From contig CAWFVB010000011.1 of the NCBI GenBank assembly GCA_963819145.1, forward strand, positions 55,234 to 119,233: DNA of 64,000 nt, given 5' to 3'. The translations under genes were made by a program, and so were the position numbers. Positions within the stretch are counted from its first letter, which is position 1. Each line of letters begins with the position of its first letter. This document shows, piece after piece, positions 1 through 55,411 of the stretch. The DNA is from an uncultured Acidobacteriaceae bacterium. GTDB taxonomy: Bacteria > Acidobacteriota > Terriglobia > Terriglobales > Acidobacteriaceae. The notes below the pieces were generated by a model. It saw only the letters and a list, made by a program, of their open reading frames with translations. It did no database searches and had not been told where the DNA came from.

Positions 1-323
1 TTCGGCACCTCATCCGACAGAAAGGGCGGAAAAATGTCGGGCAGGTGAACCTGCTTCGTGCCTTCGAAGTAGCCTTTAGAAAAGTCGAAGTTCTGGCTCA
101 TCACACTGAACTCGACGCGCTCCGCGCCAAGGATGTGGCGAATCTGGCGCAGCATCTCGTCCACCCGCACATCCGAACCCATATTGCGAGTGCCGTTGTA
201 TCCGGCGAAGAGCAAGTTCAGTTTGTCGCCCGGCTGCCAGGGCGTTCCTCCGCCCAGCATCCATCGGGCCTTGGCGCGCTCGATGTTGCCGCTGACCCAC
301 GCCTCCAGGACGAAATCCATCAT
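1..323 (-). CDS. N-terminal part of a polysaccharide pyruvyl-transferase-like protein (runs off the window edge)
   Basis: Absent from the ORF track because it has no stop in the window. My translation from ATG at 323: [66 protein letters not shown]... The [17 protein letters not shown] segment resembles the N-terminal G-Y-x-G-x-x-N-x-G-D signature of PS_pyruv_trans proteins. The ATG overlaps the TGA of the upstream reductase gene (ATGA). Confidence 0.4.
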
Positions 324-1453
324 GCGGCGCTACCTCCGCGAGCCGCGGGCCAGGGCTCGTACTTGTACTCGAAATGATTCTCACGGCTGAACTTGAGCAG
401 CGGAAAACTATACTGCGAAAACGGAACCGGCTTGCGCCCCAATTCGGAGGTCACGCGCGAGTTATCGAACACCGTGTTCCACACCAGATAGGGCATGAAG
501 ACCTTCATTAGCGCCGCGCCGTGCCCCAGCGAACCTTTGCGATTCGACAGGAAGTTCACCGAGCCCGAGAAAGGTTTCTCTGCAAACGGAACAAATACGG
601 GAGCGCGTTTCTGCTGCGCCTCGGACAGCGCCTTGGTCAATTCGCGGAACGTCTGCGACGAGGTCCCGGACGAAAGATGATAGGTCTCGAACTGCGGTTT
701 CTCTTTCTGGTGCAGAGTCGCGATCGCGTCGGCGACGAAGTCCACATTTACGATGTCAATCTTGTCAGTGGGCCGGAACGGCAGCACGGGCAAGCCGGCG
801 AGGAACACGAATGCCTTGACCATATCGAACTGAGTGGTCTCTGCGTGGCGGCTATCGCCCAGAACAATGCTGGGGCGAAAAACCGTTTTCGGAGTGTCGG
901 GCAGCAACACTCGGGTCATGTGCTCGCAGAATTTCTTGGTGCGGGCGTAGGGATCGTAGTCGGAACGGTCCCACTCGATGGAACGATCTTCGCTGACGAC
1001 TTCATTGCTGCGCTTGCCTGCAACCGCGACCGTACTCACTTCGCTGAAGCGCCGCAGACCGTGGTAGTGCTCGGCGTGCCGCGCCAGGGTCAGCACTTCG
1101 AGCGTGCCGCGCAGGTTCACGTTCAGGCAGCTTTTTTCCGACTTGCGGTTCAGGGAAGCTGCGCAATGAATCACCGAATCGGTGGTGTGCACCAGGCGAT
1201 CGTACTCATCGCGATCGAGGCCGAAGGAGGCGGAGGTCAGATCTCCGCAGAAGATTCGCACCTTCGTTTGCAAGTATTCATAAAATCGCGGGAAATCCAG
1301 ATGCAATTGCAAGGCACGCCAAAGGCGCATCTGCGCTTCCTGCGGATCGCGAGCGCGCACCAGCAGGTTCAAAGCGGCTTCGTGGCCTTGCAGCAGGTTG
1401 GCAGCGACGTGCGCGCCGATGTATCCGGTTGATCCGGTCAGGAATATCGCCAC
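320..1453 (-). CDS. NAD(P)-dependent thioester / fatty-acyl reductase family protein (SDR, NAD_binding_4 type)
   Basis: 377-aa ORF. Rossmann motif [13 protein letters not shown] and catalytic YxxxK (YARTK). Overall likeness to terminal thioester-reductase/FAR domains. 16-nt overlap with the upstream gene and ATGA overlap with the downstream gene. Confidence 0.8.
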
Positions 1454-3780
1454 GTTGCTCCATTGGTCCCGGTCTTCACGGTGTCTCCGTTGGCGGGTGC
1501 AAGTTGAAGAGTGCGAGGAGGGCGGGTCTCCAGGGGCCGCCCCTCAATGAGCGGATAGGTCCAGCGGCGTAGCGCCGGAATGTGAATGTTGATCCAGTAT
1601 TCCCACCAGTCCAGCGAACGAGTGTCGTAGGCAAAGTCAGCCTGCTCTTCGGGCACGAGCGCATGCGAAAGTTTCTCGATGTTTTCGGCCGTGAAATCAT
1701 GTTCGTTCAACAGGATAAAGGGCTCGAACAACTCAATGAGCTTTTCCAGGCGCTCCAGATTGCGTTCGGTTTTGACCAGCGGCGCCTTCTTTAACGGTAG
1801 CGGCGACATGATGCGTTGGATGGACTTCACGATCGCCTTCTGGGCGGGCGCGGACATGCGGTTATAGCGCGTTTTCGAAACCGGGATCGCATCAAACCTC
1901 AGACGCAGCCAGGACTCCAGCCCTTCCTGCGCGCGGTAGTGCTTGCGGTGCGCCAGCGAGGTCAACTCGATCGAGCGACCCATGTCGCAGGGGTTGGTCA
2001 CCGAGGTCGCGAGTTGGTAGAGCGGGTCGTGCCTCCGTTCCATGACGGCCGCGGCAATCAGAGTCATGCCCGCACAAATGGCATCCACGGGAATAATATC
2101 GAGCCGTTTGCTCTCGTTTGAAGGCAACTGCCGAAAATATGTGCCCAACAGATAGGAGAGCGACGCCGACGTATTGATGCCCTCATTCCATCCACGAAAA
2201 GGCTTCGACACCGAGGTCTCGACAATTGCTGGACGCACCACCGCCACTGGCAAACCGGAGCCGTGTTGAATCATCAGCGACTCAGCCAGGCTTTTGGTGA
2301 GGGTGTAAGTGTTCGGCCAGCCTAATTCCTTTGCGCGACGGGTTCCAGCCTCGGTCAGGTAGGTCTTCAGCCAGCGGACGCGGCCTTTACGGATCTGATT
2401 GTCCAAGGCCGCACCGTGCAGGTCCTTCGCCGCATGCTCCTTGGACTGTGCTTGCATGCGCAGGTCGGAAGTGACTTCTTCACTCTCGGCCTGAGATTCA
2501 GCCTGCTTCACCAACTCGTGAAGCGAGTTCCACTCCTTTTCGGCGTCGAATCCGGGCAAGCCATGCGGATTGTAGTTCGGAGTCAGCTTTTCGCTGACTC
2601 GCCCATCCTGTTCACCGGCCACGTAGCAGGTGGAGAGATGCAGGAGTCCGGTATGGTCGGTCGACCGGACAAACTCGAGGATGTTCAAAGCCGCGTCGGT
2701 GTTGGTGCTGAGAGCGTCGCGCAGGTCGGGATTGAAGTCCGTCAGGCCAGAACTGTTGATAATCAGGTCCAGATTCTTCTGCAAACGGCGGGCGGTGTCG
2801 TCGCTCAGTCCGAGCCCCGGTTGGGTGACGTCTCCTTCGACGACCTCAATCTTTTCGCGTAAAAACTCGGGGAGTCCGTCTCCATGCTTTTCAAACAATG
2901 GATCGAAGACGGGCGATTCTTCCACCATTTTCTCGAAGCGTCGCTCTGCCGGGTTCGACTTCTGCCGCCGGATCAGCAGGAAGATTCGCTTCACTTCGGG
3001 CAAATCCAGAAGCGTGTTGGCCAGCCAGACCTTACCAATAAAACCGGTGACCCCGATCAGCATCACCTGCTTGCCGGAGAATGCCCGCCGCACGGAAAAC
3101 CCGGGCGCCTGTCTCTGACCGTCAAAATGAACGACGGGCCGCACCAGGCCCGGCGCCTGCCGCTCGGCTGGAATCACCGCCGCCCGCAGCGCTTCGACGG
3201 AAATGTCCAGTTGCCGCGCCAGAGTTTTCGGAGCGCGGCGCCCGTCCGGATTCTCCTCCCGGATGCGGGCGAAGGCTCCGCGCGGCCGGATGACGGGCTC
3301 GATCAAGCGGCCCGTTGCGGTGCCGTCGTGGAACTCCAGGCGATTACAGACGATCCGCTTCACGCCGAGATGCTGTGCCAGCGGGCGCATCACGTGCTCC
3401 AGTCCCTGGCTTACGAGCACGACCTCTGCCCCGCCTTGCACCAGTTCCTGCACTTTTTGGACTCCCCGCTCTTTCAATCGCGGCTTCAACTTGTAAAGAA
3501 AGAACTCTTCCCCCAGCAGATCAAGGCGGTCGCGAGTGACTCCGCGCAAAACGGTATGCACCGCCCGTGTGGCGAACTTGCGGTTTGTGGAATAGAGAAA
3601 CGGACGCAGGAGCGCCATCACGAAGATCTGTCCGCGGCGCCGGAAGCGCTCTGCGAACGTCTGGGCATTCCAGGTAAAGAACGCCACTGGCTCGACGACG
3701 GTGAGGTCGAGCAGGCTCCCCTCTACTCGCCAGTAGACGGTGGGTGCGGCCGTACTGGGATTGTGGTTTTGCTGTTCCAA
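1438..3780 (-). CDS. Fusion of a degenerate HAD-IB-like domain with a fatty acyl-CoA/ACP reductase (FAR, male-sterility type) domain
   Basis: 780-aa ORF. The N-terminal ~200 aa resemble HAD-IB (VVLVSQG...[21 protein letters not shown]). From residue ~235 there is a FAR-like Rossmann motif ([26 protein letters not shown]) and YxxxK (YTLTK), then a FAR C-terminal-like region. Confidence 0.8.
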
Positions 3781-3884: not shown

Positions 3885-3905
3885 GCGAGGCCACGACCGC
3901 CTCGC
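3885..3905 (-). terminator. GC-rich hairpin downstream of the MFS gene (possible terminator, no U-tract)
   Basis: Perfect 7-bp inverted repeat gcgaggc (3885-3891) / gcctcgc (3899-3905) with a 7-nt loop, 29 nt past the MFS stop. No T-run follows on the minus strand. Confidence 0.2.
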
Positions 3906-3933
3906 GACAGCCGGCAAGATGCCGGCGCTACGG

Positions 3934-5226
3934 TTAGGCGTCAGCCGTTGTCCTTGGCTGTCTGCCAACGATCAGCGCCGTCGCACCGCTGATTGCGACG
4001 GTCCCGGCAATCGCCAGCAGCCCTCCGCGAAACCCACTGTGCGCCGTCCGAAAAAGTCCAATGATGTCGGGACCATAATATCCGCCAAGATTGGCGAGGG
4101 AGTTGATCAGGGCGATTCCGGCTGCCGCCGAAAGGCCGACCAGGCGCGAGGTCGCCATCGCCCAGAAGGGTCCCACCATCGACTCGGTGCAGACCAGACC
4201 CAAGCCAATTCCCGCCACGACCACAACTGCGGAACTGCCGTATCCCGCAACGACCAGGGCTGTGGCCCCCAGAAAAGCCGGAATTGCCGTGTGCCATCGA
4301 CGTTCCCCGGTGCGATCGGAGTGCATGCCGACCAGAACCATGACGACAGCCGCCGCCACGAATGGAATCGCGGCTACTAGGCCGGTTCGGATGTAACCCA
4401 ACCCTGACTGACTCTGGATGATGCTCGGCAGCCAGAGAGTGACTCCGTACATGGTGGTGGAAACTCCGAAATAGACAAGCGACAGCATCCAAATTCTGGG
4501 GCTGAGGACGACCTGCCAGAGGCTCCCTTGTGTCAGAGCCGATTCTGCCCGATGCTCGTAAGCCAATTTCTCGAGCAGCCACGTTCGTTCGTCCCCTTTC
4601 AACCAGCGTGCCTGTTGCGGTGTATCGAACAAAACCCAAGCCACGGTTGCTCCCAGGATGATGGCGGGAATACCCTCCATCAGGAACATCCACTGCCAGC
4701 CCGAAAGGCCTTTGCCGCTCAGCCCGAGCAAGGCTCCGGAAACCGGACTGCCGACGACACCCGCGATCGGATTCGCAGTCATGAACCAGGCTACGGCACG
4801 CGCCCGGGCGCTGGCCGGGAACCAGTGCTTCATGTAGAGGATCATGCCGGGGAAGAATCCGGCCTCGGCAGCGCCGAGCATGAAACGCATGGCGTAGAAA
4901 CTGATGGGTCCGCGGATAAAAACCATCAGGCACGAAATCACTCCCCAGGTCACCATCAAGCCGGAAATCCAGCGCCGGACGCCGAACTTTTCGAGCACTA
5001 GGTTGCTGGGAAGCTGGAATAGAAAGTACCCGGCGAAGAACATGCCGGCGGCACGGCCGTAGACGCGATCCGTCAAACCGAGTTGCCCCCGCATTTGCAG
5101 CACGGCGAAGCTGACGTTGATTCGATCGAGATAGGCAACGATGTAGAGCAGGAAGAGAAACGGCATCAGCCGCCACATCAGTCGGGAGATGACGGCGGAT
5201 TCGAGTCGGTCGGGGATAGTTTCCAA
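3934..5226 (-). CDS. MFS transporter, anion:cation symporter (ACS) type, probable sugar-acid (gluconate/hexuronate-like) permease
   Basis: Tracked ORF is 3934..5517, but its first ~100 codons overlap gntK and look non-coding. The conserved ACS N-terminus ESAVISRLMWRLMPFLFLLYIVAYLDRINVSFA needs a start upstream of the ATG at 5178. A TTG at 5226 fits. There are 12 TM-like segments. The start is uncertain (5226 or 5178). Confidence 0.8.
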   Translation of the reverse strand: METIPDRLESAVISRLMWRLMPFLFLLYIVAYLDRINVSFAVLQMRGQLGLTDRVYGRAAGMFFAGYFLFQLPSNLVLEKFGVRRWISGLMVTWGVISCLMVFIRGPISFYAMRFMLGAAEAGFFPGMILYMKHWFPASARARAVAWFMTANPIAGVVGSPVSGALLGLSGKGLSGWQWMFLMEGIPAIILGATVAWVLFDTPQQARWLKGDERTWLLEKLAYEHRAESALTQGSLWQVVLSPRIWMLSLVYFGVSTTMYGVTLWLPSIIQSQSGLGYIRTGLVAAIPFVAAAVVMVLVGMHSDRTGERRWHTAIPAFLGATALVVAGYGSSAVVVVAGIGLGLVCTESMVGPFWAMATSRLVGLSAAAGIALINSLANLGGYYGPDIIGLFRTAHSGFRGGLLAIAGTVAISGATALIVGRQPRTTADA

Positions 5227-54952: not shown

Positions 54953-55411
54953 ATGCAGGAAAGTTTGTCAGTACAGCCATCGGGCGGTGTTCAGGTCGAC
55001 AAAGTGCTTGAGGAAATGCACCGCGAATTCAAAACGCTCATGGTGCAGAGAGCGGCGATTCTGAGGCGGATCGGCACGATCAAACAAACCATTCATGGGC
55101 TGGCGAAACTCTTTGGCGAAGACGCAGTCGGCGGGGAGGTGTCGGAACTCGTTGATGGCAAGTCGAGTACACGTACGAGAGGATTCACCAGAACCTGCCG
55201 TCTAGTGCTGATGGAGTCAAAACGACCGATGGCAAGCCAGGAAGTTTGTGAGGAAGTCAAGCGCCGCAGTCCCGACCTGCTGGCTCACCATAAGGATCCC
55301 TTGGCTTCGGTATCAACCGTGCTCAGCCGTCTGGCGAGATATGGCGAGGCGCGCGCCGTTCTTGGCGAACGAGGCCGGCGCGAATGGGAGTGGGTTACAG
55401 AGAGGCTGTGA
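54953..55411 (+). CDS. Hypothetical protein (coiled-coil N-terminus, possible winged-helix C-terminus)
   Basis: In-frame ATG 54953 is preceded by AGGGGGA. The 152-aa protein starts MQESLSVQPSGG...; no family recognised. Confidence 0.45.
   Translation: MQESLSVQPSGGVQVDKVLEEMHREFKTLMVQRAAILRRIGTIKQTIHGLAKLFGEDAVGGEVSELVDGKSSTRTRGFTRTCRLVLMESKRPMASQEVCEEVKRRSPDLLAHHKDPLASVSTVLSRLARYGEARAVLGERGRREWEWVTERL

Follow-up and report, generated by a model that had tools for sequence, protein, structure and literature searches.

An uncultured Acidobacteriaceae bacterium (assembly GCA_963819145.1, 5.76 Mb, 84% complete) carries on contig CAWFVB010000011.1 a gene whose 780-amino-acid (aa) product joins a HAD-IB-like domain to a fatty-acyl reductase (FAR). 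The gene lies close to the left edge of the stretch of DNA analysed here, a window of 64,000 nucleotides (nt) spanning positions 55,234 to 119,233 of the contig (G000:C11:55234-119233, with G000 standing for the genome and C11 for the contig). The genes and domains assigned at this edge of the window were as follows.

1438..3780, minus strand: gene for the fusion of a degenerate HAD domain (HAD*) to a FAR, 780 aa; open reading frame (ORF) with Pfam matches; first conserved gene of the operon.
3247..3741, minus strand: degenerate HAD-IB-like (ElbB-type) domain, aa 14-178, from hhalign against ElbB-like HADs.
2071..3057, minus strand: Rossmann/catalytic domain of the FAR, aa 242-570, Pfam PF07993, 180 bits.
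1561..1764, minus strand: C-terminal Sterile domain of the FAR, aa 673-740, PF03015, 40 bits against a cut-off of 35.4.
320..1453, minus strand: gene for a stand-alone thioester reductase of the R-domain type, 377 aa, from Pfam and NCBIfam TIGR01746.
1..323, minus strand: first 107 codons of a gene for a pyruvyl-transferase-like GT-B protein; full gene of 469 aa at G000:C11:54147-55556.

In a preliminary description of this window, a HAD-IB-like/FAR fusion overlapping a second reductase gene by 16 nt, and that gene coupled through ATGA to a pyruvyl-transferase-like gene, had been proposed, and all of this was borne out. Pfam matched HAD, NAD_binding_4 and Sterile in the 780-aa protein, and PS_pyruv_trans (PF04230) in the 469-aa protein with 28.8 bits against a cut-off of 25.3. 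The starts and junctions were read directly: the 780-aa ORF starts at a TTG that has AGGA about 10 nt ahead of it, the ORF of 377 aa begins with GTG and overlaps the fusion gene by 16 nt (GTG...TGA), and the ATGA junction to the pyruvyl-transferase-like gene lies at 320-323. The last of these genes is truncated by the left edge of the window. When the genome sequence was extended past this edge to see the genes that lie outside, the three genes held as described, but the operon was found to have at least eight genes, of which the window cuts off the rest.

The order of genes in the operon is HAD*-FAR, R-domain reductase (SDR), pyruvyl-transferase-like GT-B protein (PSPT), AMP555, ECH, acyl carrier protein (ACP), AMP570 and kinase, genes 4-8 being outside the window. 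AMP555 is an acyl-CoA ligase, the translation of which probably begins with the Met of codon 7. ECH is a crotonase in which both catalytic Glu residues align to those of EchA8, and it is predicted to be hydratase-competent. The ACP, which has 80 aa, a GIDSL motif and a PF00550 match at 3e-11, had been missed by ORF cut-offs; its gene is placed as follows.

L002:11133-11375 = G000:C11:51366-51608, minus strand: ACP gene, 80 aa, between the crotonase and the second ligase, outside the window.

AMP570, the second ligase, is the ligase closest to the ligase domain of ElbD (30% identity, E 1e-70), and the last core gene encodes a YegS/DAGK-type lipid kinase. Neither a KS nor a C nor an amino-acid A domain was found in this neighbourhood, which holds genes for an ACP, a crotonase, a lipid kinase and a pair of acyl ligases. 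These results support the view, put forward in the preliminary description, that the context is one of lipid synthesis rather than of nonribosomal peptide synthetases (NRPS) or polyketide synthases (PKS).

To describe how constant this arrangement is, we used 80 metagenome loci, counting for each gene those loci that were long enough to hold it. The genes accompany the fusion gene as follows.

377-aa reductase (SDR): 64/64 loci.
Pyruvyl-transferase-like GT-B gene (PSPT): 48/48 loci.
First ligase, AMP555: 38/39 loci.
Crotonase, ECH: 34/35 loci.
ACP: 34/35 loci.
Second ligase, AMP570: 26/29 loci.
Lipid kinase: 22/26 loci.
VKOR gene further downstream: 18/23 loci.

The gene order was unchanged in nearly every metagenome locus of sufficient length and identical in six genomes from five acidobacterial families; many soil Acidobacteria share it. 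Among 121 sampled Terriglobia genomes, a tally that takes in the unpublished genomes G363 and G390, the GT-B gene was present in 46; nearly all members of three families had it, several other families yielded none, and it was single-copy in nearly all of the genomes that carry it. The sample of the phylum takes in the unpublished genomes G049, G152 and G024. Two contigs labelled Verrucomicrobiia (L015) and Candidatus Binatus (L003) encode pyruvyl-transferase-like proteins 90-95% identical to that of this genome; faulty binning or labelling, and not a presence in other phyla, is the probable cause.

The HAD part of the fusion protein has lost the residues on which HAD catalysis depends. PF12710 matched aa 25-175 with 53.4 bits against the Pfam cut-off of 27, and TIGR01490 scored 52.6 bits, below the NCBIfam cut-off of 98.3; by these scores the domain is homologous to the PF12710/TIGR01490 family, yet no regular member of it. 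The nucleophile of motif I and the acidic pair of motif IV had previously been suspected to be missing. Alignment of the fusion domain by hhalign with stand-alone HADs resembling ElbB of the elb ether-lipid cluster (probability 99.4%, E 2e-21, 157 columns) paired WRVEGSL with (F/Y)D(L/V)(E/D)GTL, which puts R18 on the nucleophile Asp and E20 on the D+2 position, in agreement with MAFFT, and S22 on the Thr of motif I. Motif II is present, S124 (LVSQGL) being aligned with VVTGAL / LVSGSI of the ElbB-like proteins. The Lys of motif III is replaced by A169, in a region with a conserved RPRG and variable residues after it. The hhalign alignment ends ahead of motif IV, and the profile matches stop at position 161 (161/189 in Pfam and 161/202 in TIGR01490). 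In 151 orthologues, motif I reads (Y/F/H)WR(V/A)EG(S/T)L; neither R18 nor E20 varies in any of them (151/151), whereas their motif IV region is variable and no conserved acidic pair was found. D25 of 'LLDLT' was considered as a shifted nucleophile and ruled out, since the consensus there is N in a seven-family alignment. The suspicion was confirmed by the alignment with the ElbB-like HADs, in which the nucleophile and also the motif III Lys are lost, and by a motif IV region that cannot be aligned. The AlphaFold2 (AF2) model of the 780-aa protein, with a mean predicted local distance difference test (pLDDT) score of 89.9 and a predicted template modelling score (pTM) of 0.89, agrees with these losses: DSSP identified strand S1, the helical cap, S2 and the S3 hairpin in the HAD part, while strands S4 and S5 are absent and a low-confidence loop with short helices stands in their place. 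Foldseek with the full-length model returned SDR/FAR matches only.

Despite these losses, the domain is maintained. Mean identity among 153 orthologues was 74% in HAD* and 78% in the FAR, and 55% in the linker between them. In the same orthologues R18, R45, R48, R49, R67, R72, R79, R85, R147, R158 and R167 are conserved in at least 98%, and R67, R79, R85 and R158, together with an NRLEF...ATGR hairpin, are common to the fusion domain and the ElbB-like proteins. Since the catalytic residues are lost but the conservation is close to that of the FAR, HAD*, which is under strong purifying selection, is taken to be a retained pseudo-phosphatase. We read HAD* as having kept the ligand-recognition elements of the cap and the hairpin and gained a basic surface. 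It would accordingly bind an anionic partner rather than hydrolyse one, candidates being the acidic ACP, the phosphate of phosphopantetheine or CoA, and the head group of a phospholipid. A binding role had already been suggested for this module, and it appears a sensible reading, because the motifs have been lost yet strong purifying selection remains.

ElbD and ElbB have been tied to ether-lipid synthesis in Myxococcus xanthus, and the Myxococcus genes are laid out as elbB-C-D-E (PMC9131029). The elb comparison was made with acidobacterial elb-like loci found by synteny (L102-L105), not with M. xanthus sequences. In these loci a full ElbD-type gene encodes a FAR-ligase-ACP-acyltransferase protein of about 1,450-1,500 aa, a stand-alone HAD adjoins ElbD in three of the four loci examined, a YegS-type kinase adjoins it in two, and the order of HAD, Lar_N protein, ElbD and epimerase-type SDR corresponds to the elbB-C-D-E layout. 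The ElbB-like stand-alone HADs match PF12710 over its full length, with FYDLEGTL or FFDVDGTL as motif I and SDSMSD or ADSLDD as motif IV. When HAD* was used as a query, the ElbD-adjacent HAD was the top genome-wide match in three genomes and the sole match at E<=0.01 in two of them. In the reverse search, the HAD of L102 found the HAD* domain as its best match in this genome (E 6e-15 vs 4e-5 for another HAD), and for the HAD of L104 the margin was small (E 4e-7 vs 3e-6). By these searches the nearest relatives of HAD* are the catalytically complete ElbB-like HADs that adjoin ElbD in other Acidobacteria, and the link to lipids drawn in the preliminary description is strengthened by it. In one acidobacterial family the ElbB-like HADs (L102:4650-5351 and L103:14198-14860) read D-L-E-G-T, with Glu for the second Asp. 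The fusion domain may derive from this subtype, because the dead domain keeps the same Glu.

The operon shares with the elb cluster of M. xanthus (elbA-E) and its acidobacterial counterparts an ElbB-type HAD, a FAR that includes Sterile, a ligase of the ElbD type, an ACP and, in the neighbourhood, a YegS-type kinase. It differs in that its HAD is dead and fused to the FAR, that the ElbD domains are separate genes, that an AGPAT domain, a Lar_N ElbC-like gene and an ElbE-type SDR are lacking, and that genes for an R-domain reductase, a pyruvyl-transferase-like protein, a further ligase and a crotonase are added. In our reading, the operon is a relative of the elb ether-lipid cluster that has been rebuilt and lacks an acyltransferase. 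Full-length ElbD and a Lar_N ElbC-like gene were not found in this genome, which is 84% complete, and a PSPT homologue was not found in five ElbD-bearing genomes; in a small and related sample, this hints that the operon and ElbD are alternative systems. The only ElbE-like match in the genome lies elsewhere, on C27. Two further genes elsewhere in the genome, at G000:C2:318318-320789 and G000:C35:372879-375468, encode ligase-ACP-acyltransferase proteins with 27-30% identity to P0134, in effect ElbD minus the reductase; the match of the C35 copy falls into two pieces that overlap, and this copy may be frameshifted.

Plant enzymes offer a parallel to the fusion. The sn-2 GPATs of plants carry an N-terminal HAD-like phosphatase domain (PF23270, HAD_RAM2_N) that is active in GPAT4/6/8 and degenerate in GPAT5/7, so that there, too, a HAD-IB-like domain is fused to an enzyme of lipid synthesis and is retained in some members although degenerate. 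An ElbB-like protein gave a weak PF23270 match (E 0.0013). The two cases differ in that the partner here is a reductase and not an acyltransferase, that the lineage is bacterial, and that no PF23270 match is listed for the 780-aa protein.

The larger part of the fusion protein is predicted to be an active alcohol-forming FAR, having the architecture of such enzymes. NAD_binding_4 matched aa 242-570 and Sterile matched aa 673-740, and the FAR motifs are intact (GVTGFIGK at 243-250 and YTLTK at 492-496), with Y492, K496, G243, G246 and K250 nearly invariant among 67 FARs. The best Foldseek match was the rice FAR DPW (7eoz; E 5e-31, TM score 0.83), with the C-terminus of which the Sterile domain aligns. 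The protein thus shares with DPW and with bacterial stand-alone FARs the two domains and the TGFIGK and YxxxK motifs, and differs from them by its 230-aa N-terminal pseudo-HAD and by forming a clade of its own. More than 5,700 homologues of the 780-aa protein were found, the top 120 of which all have the same four Pfam domains, and among public homologues with an organism label, the nearest are for the most part labelled Candidatus Sulfotelmatobacter or other Terriglobia. Its FAR relatives at 33-42% identity, taken as representatives of 50%-identity clusters, are stand-alone FARs, ElbD-like proteins and FAR-acyltransferase fusions. In a FastTree phylogeny of 117 FAR domains, which has solely local support values and weak deep branches, the HAD-FAR fusions formed one clade (SH-like support 97), placed with stand-alone FARs and separate from the ElbD branch. 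Because the fusions make one clade, their sequences fit a single origin. An origin of the FAR as a split-off N-terminus of ElbD was rejected, the tree having placed it with stand-alone FARs, and the N-terminal extension of the FAR P0190 was rejected as a HAD (hhalign probability 0.5%). The FAR also contains a three-helix insertion of about 75 aa with many Glu, Lys and Gln residues (aa 413-486, window 2340-2540), which is shorter in the divergent fusions P0122, P0123 and P0127.

The 377-aa protein matched NAD_binding_4 with 142 bits (Pfam) and TIGR01746 with 125.9 bits, below the cut-off of 213, and is stand-alone with no linked carrier domain. Its best solved relatives are the R domain of MxaA (4u7w, E 3e-19), a PKS TR domain and the R domains of carboxylic acid reductases (CAR; 5mso), the E values running from 3e-19 to 3e-13. 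On these matches it is a homologue of R domains, with the Rossmann and YxxxK motifs, and of a reductase type distinct from the FAR; it differs from the R domains of NRPS, PKS and CAR in being free-standing, with neither a carrier nor an adenylation domain fused to it. A serial relay of two tandem FARs, converting a thioester to an aldehyde and then to an alcohol, had been suggested from the gene pair. This part of the earlier proposal is not supported in that form, because the two reductases differ in type, a FAR with Sterile vs an R domain of the NRPS/PKS/CAR type, and because the operon holds two ligases, which fit two different thioester substrates better than a single relay. A third NAD_binding_4 domain of 200 bits lies elsewhere in the genome, at G000:C18:144970-145683 on the minus strand, in a 1,136-aa frame that may be CAR-like or NRPS-like.

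The third enzyme, the 469-aa protein, resembles pyruvyl transferases at a distance. Besides passing the PF04230 gathering score, it aligned with the CsaB model TIGR03609 over nearly the full length (E 3e-15), at 56 bits against a cut-off of 213. Its AF2 model (pLDDT 85.6) has a GT-B fold, which matches lipid and sugar glycosyltransferases such as PimA (Z 21.9) better than the yeast pyruvyltransferase Pvg1p (Z 15.6), with MGD1 also among the best; its alignment, run as a profile against solved structures, gave nothing meaningful. The stretch S345-R346-x-H348 is invariant and may correspond to the R-x-H of pyruvyl transferases. In its Pfam score, its nearly end-to-end alignment with CsaB and its Pvg1p-like fold, the protein is like the CsaB/Pvg1p (PF04230) enzymes; it is unlike them in being very distant, in having a helix at the N-terminus and a long helical extension at the C-terminus, and in belonging to a lipid rather than a polysaccharide operon.

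Taken together, the operon probably makes a fatty-alcohol-based, possibly ether, membrane lipid. In the pathway that we propose, the ElbD-type ligase would load a fatty acid on the ACP and one of the reductases would yield the fatty alcohol. The pyruvyl-transferase-like enzyme would then couple this alcohol to a C3 unit derived from phosphoenolpyruvate (PEP), giving an enol ether, the remaining ligase and reductase, together with the crotonase, would turn the C3 unit into a glycerol-type backbone, and the kinase would phosphorylate the product, which would feed phospholipid synthesis. The check made on this pathway was that each enzyme has its catalytic motifs preserved. We put the probability of this reading, in which an active FAR with an ElbB-type pseudo-phosphatase domain opens a conserved lipid operon with a fatty-alcohol/C3-unit route, at roughly 0.55. 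A more specific form of it appears unlikely to us as a complete scheme: an oxygen-tolerant route to glycerol ethers in which an alkyl enolpyruvyl ether, formed by the pyruvyl-transferase-like enzyme from PEP and the fatty alcohol of the FAR, would be activated by the remaining ligase, hydrated by the crotonase and reduced by the R-domain reductase to O-alkyl-glycerol and then pass to the kinase, with the dead domain holding the ACP or a phosphorylated lipid.

Several points weigh against the proposed pathway. The assignment of a pyruvyl transferase comes from weak sequence scores, and the fold search cannot separate a pyruvyl transferase from a glycosyltransferase. The fusion FAR falls outside the ElbD branch, so that the operon is not simply a split ElbD; the operon contains neither an acyltransferase nor a Lar_N ElbC-like gene, and an ElbE-like SDR had no blastp match to the 377-aa reductase at 1e-5. 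Finally, the putative docking role of HAD* is drawn from conservation and charge.

Two other pathways were weighed against the fatty-alcohol/C3-unit route, and we consider each of them improbable. One is a classical elb-like route, in which the operon would supply a fatty alcohol or aldehyde and an acyl-ACP, the ether bond and the backbone would be made as in Myxococcus with an acyltransferase acting in trans, and the GT-B protein would decorate a head group or a glycolipid. The resemblance of HAD* to ElbB and of AMP570 to the ElbD ligase is consistent with this, as are the lipid-acting glycosyltransferases PimA and MGD1 among the best structural matches of the GT-B protein and the ligase-ACP-acyltransferase proteins encoded on C2 and C35. 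However, matches to the latter recur in many sampled Acidobacteriota genomes, with or without the operon, and are therefore unspecific. In addition, a Lar_N ElbC-like gene was not found in this genome at its 84% completeness, and such a route gives no function to the crotonase or to the other ligase and reductase, all of which are conserved to the same degree as the remaining genes.

The other is a reduced lipid without an ether bond, such as an alkane-1,3-diol (a 3-hydroxy fatty alcohol) that the crotonase and the reductases would make and the pyruvyl transferase would cap as a pyruvate ketal, or an alkyl phosphate or wax-type lipid, a possibility that we hold to be doubtful to the same degree. 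Pyruvyl transferases of the CsaB/Pvg1p family normally form ketals on the 1,3-diols of sugars, and a hydratase-competent crotonase, two reductases and a lipid kinase are at hand; the clustering of the fusion FAR with stand-alone FARs also fits. On the other hand, the operon has no dehydrogenase or desaturase to provide an enoyl substrate, and its ElbB-like and ElbD-ligase-like parts, together with the finding that operon and ElbD did not overlap in the genomes checked, are circumstantial pointers to an ether-lipid theme. That HAD* is still an enzyme with non-canonical residues (E20 and arginines), whether a phosphatase, a phosphotransferase or a mutase, is very improbable: E20, S124 and many pocket-side residues are invariant and a Glu at D+2 also occurs in the ElbB-like proteins of one family, but the nucleophile position is Arg in all 151 orthologues, the motif III Lys, an alignable motif IV and the S4/S5 strands are gone, and we know of no HAD member that acts without the nucleophile Asp.

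Upstream of the fusion gene lies a transporter gene of the major facilitator superfamily (MFS).

3934..5220, minus strand: ACS-family MFS transporter (HpaX/DgoT-like), Pfam MFS_1; facultative upstream neighbour, outside the core.

It scored 304 bits with the NCBIfam model HpaX and 300 bits with that of a D-galactonate transporter, both below the cut-off, and is of the organic-anion importer type. Since a gene of this kind lies directly upstream on the same strand in 48/126 loci only, we do not regard it as a core member of the operon. The listed 527-aa MFS ORF probably starts about 100 codons too early. Between the MFS and fusion genes (~3890-3935) there are two GC-rich hairpins without a T-run, and a scan for promoters and terminators gave no more sites than in shuffled sequence. 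At the other end, between the lipid kinase and the VKOR gene, a gene for a membrane-anchored thioredoxin-like protein (CPHC; L002:7927-8351, minus strand, outside the window) is split in this assembly into two overlapping frames of 86 aa and 78 aa. Its orthologue at L154:20488-20913 is an intact ORF of 141 aa, and the split is a frameshift or an assembly error.

The elb cluster occurs in only some subdivision-4 genomes, and the ether route in other Acidobacteria has been described as unclear (PMC11868695, PMC10087280). In the published literature, searched in full text, no paper describing the present gene combination was found, and the HAD-FAR fusion is not mentioned in the elb literature. 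How ether bonds are formed in aerobic soil Acidobacteria is a question behind the palaeoclimate proxies based on branched glycerol dialkyl glycerol tetraethers (brGDGT). The fusion physically ties an ElbB-type domain to a reductase, which by the Rosetta-stone argument bears on the role of ElbB itself, and it is a clean example of a pseudo-enzyme domain maintained by selection. The operon, being single-copy, strongly conserved, common in Terriglobia and made in part of elb components, offers a concrete set of genes for knock-out and expression. If the oxygen-tolerant glycerol ether route were true, the Terriglobia, which are candidate sources of branched tetraethers, would gain a route to ether lipids that needs neither ElbD/AGPS nor PlsA/Ger.

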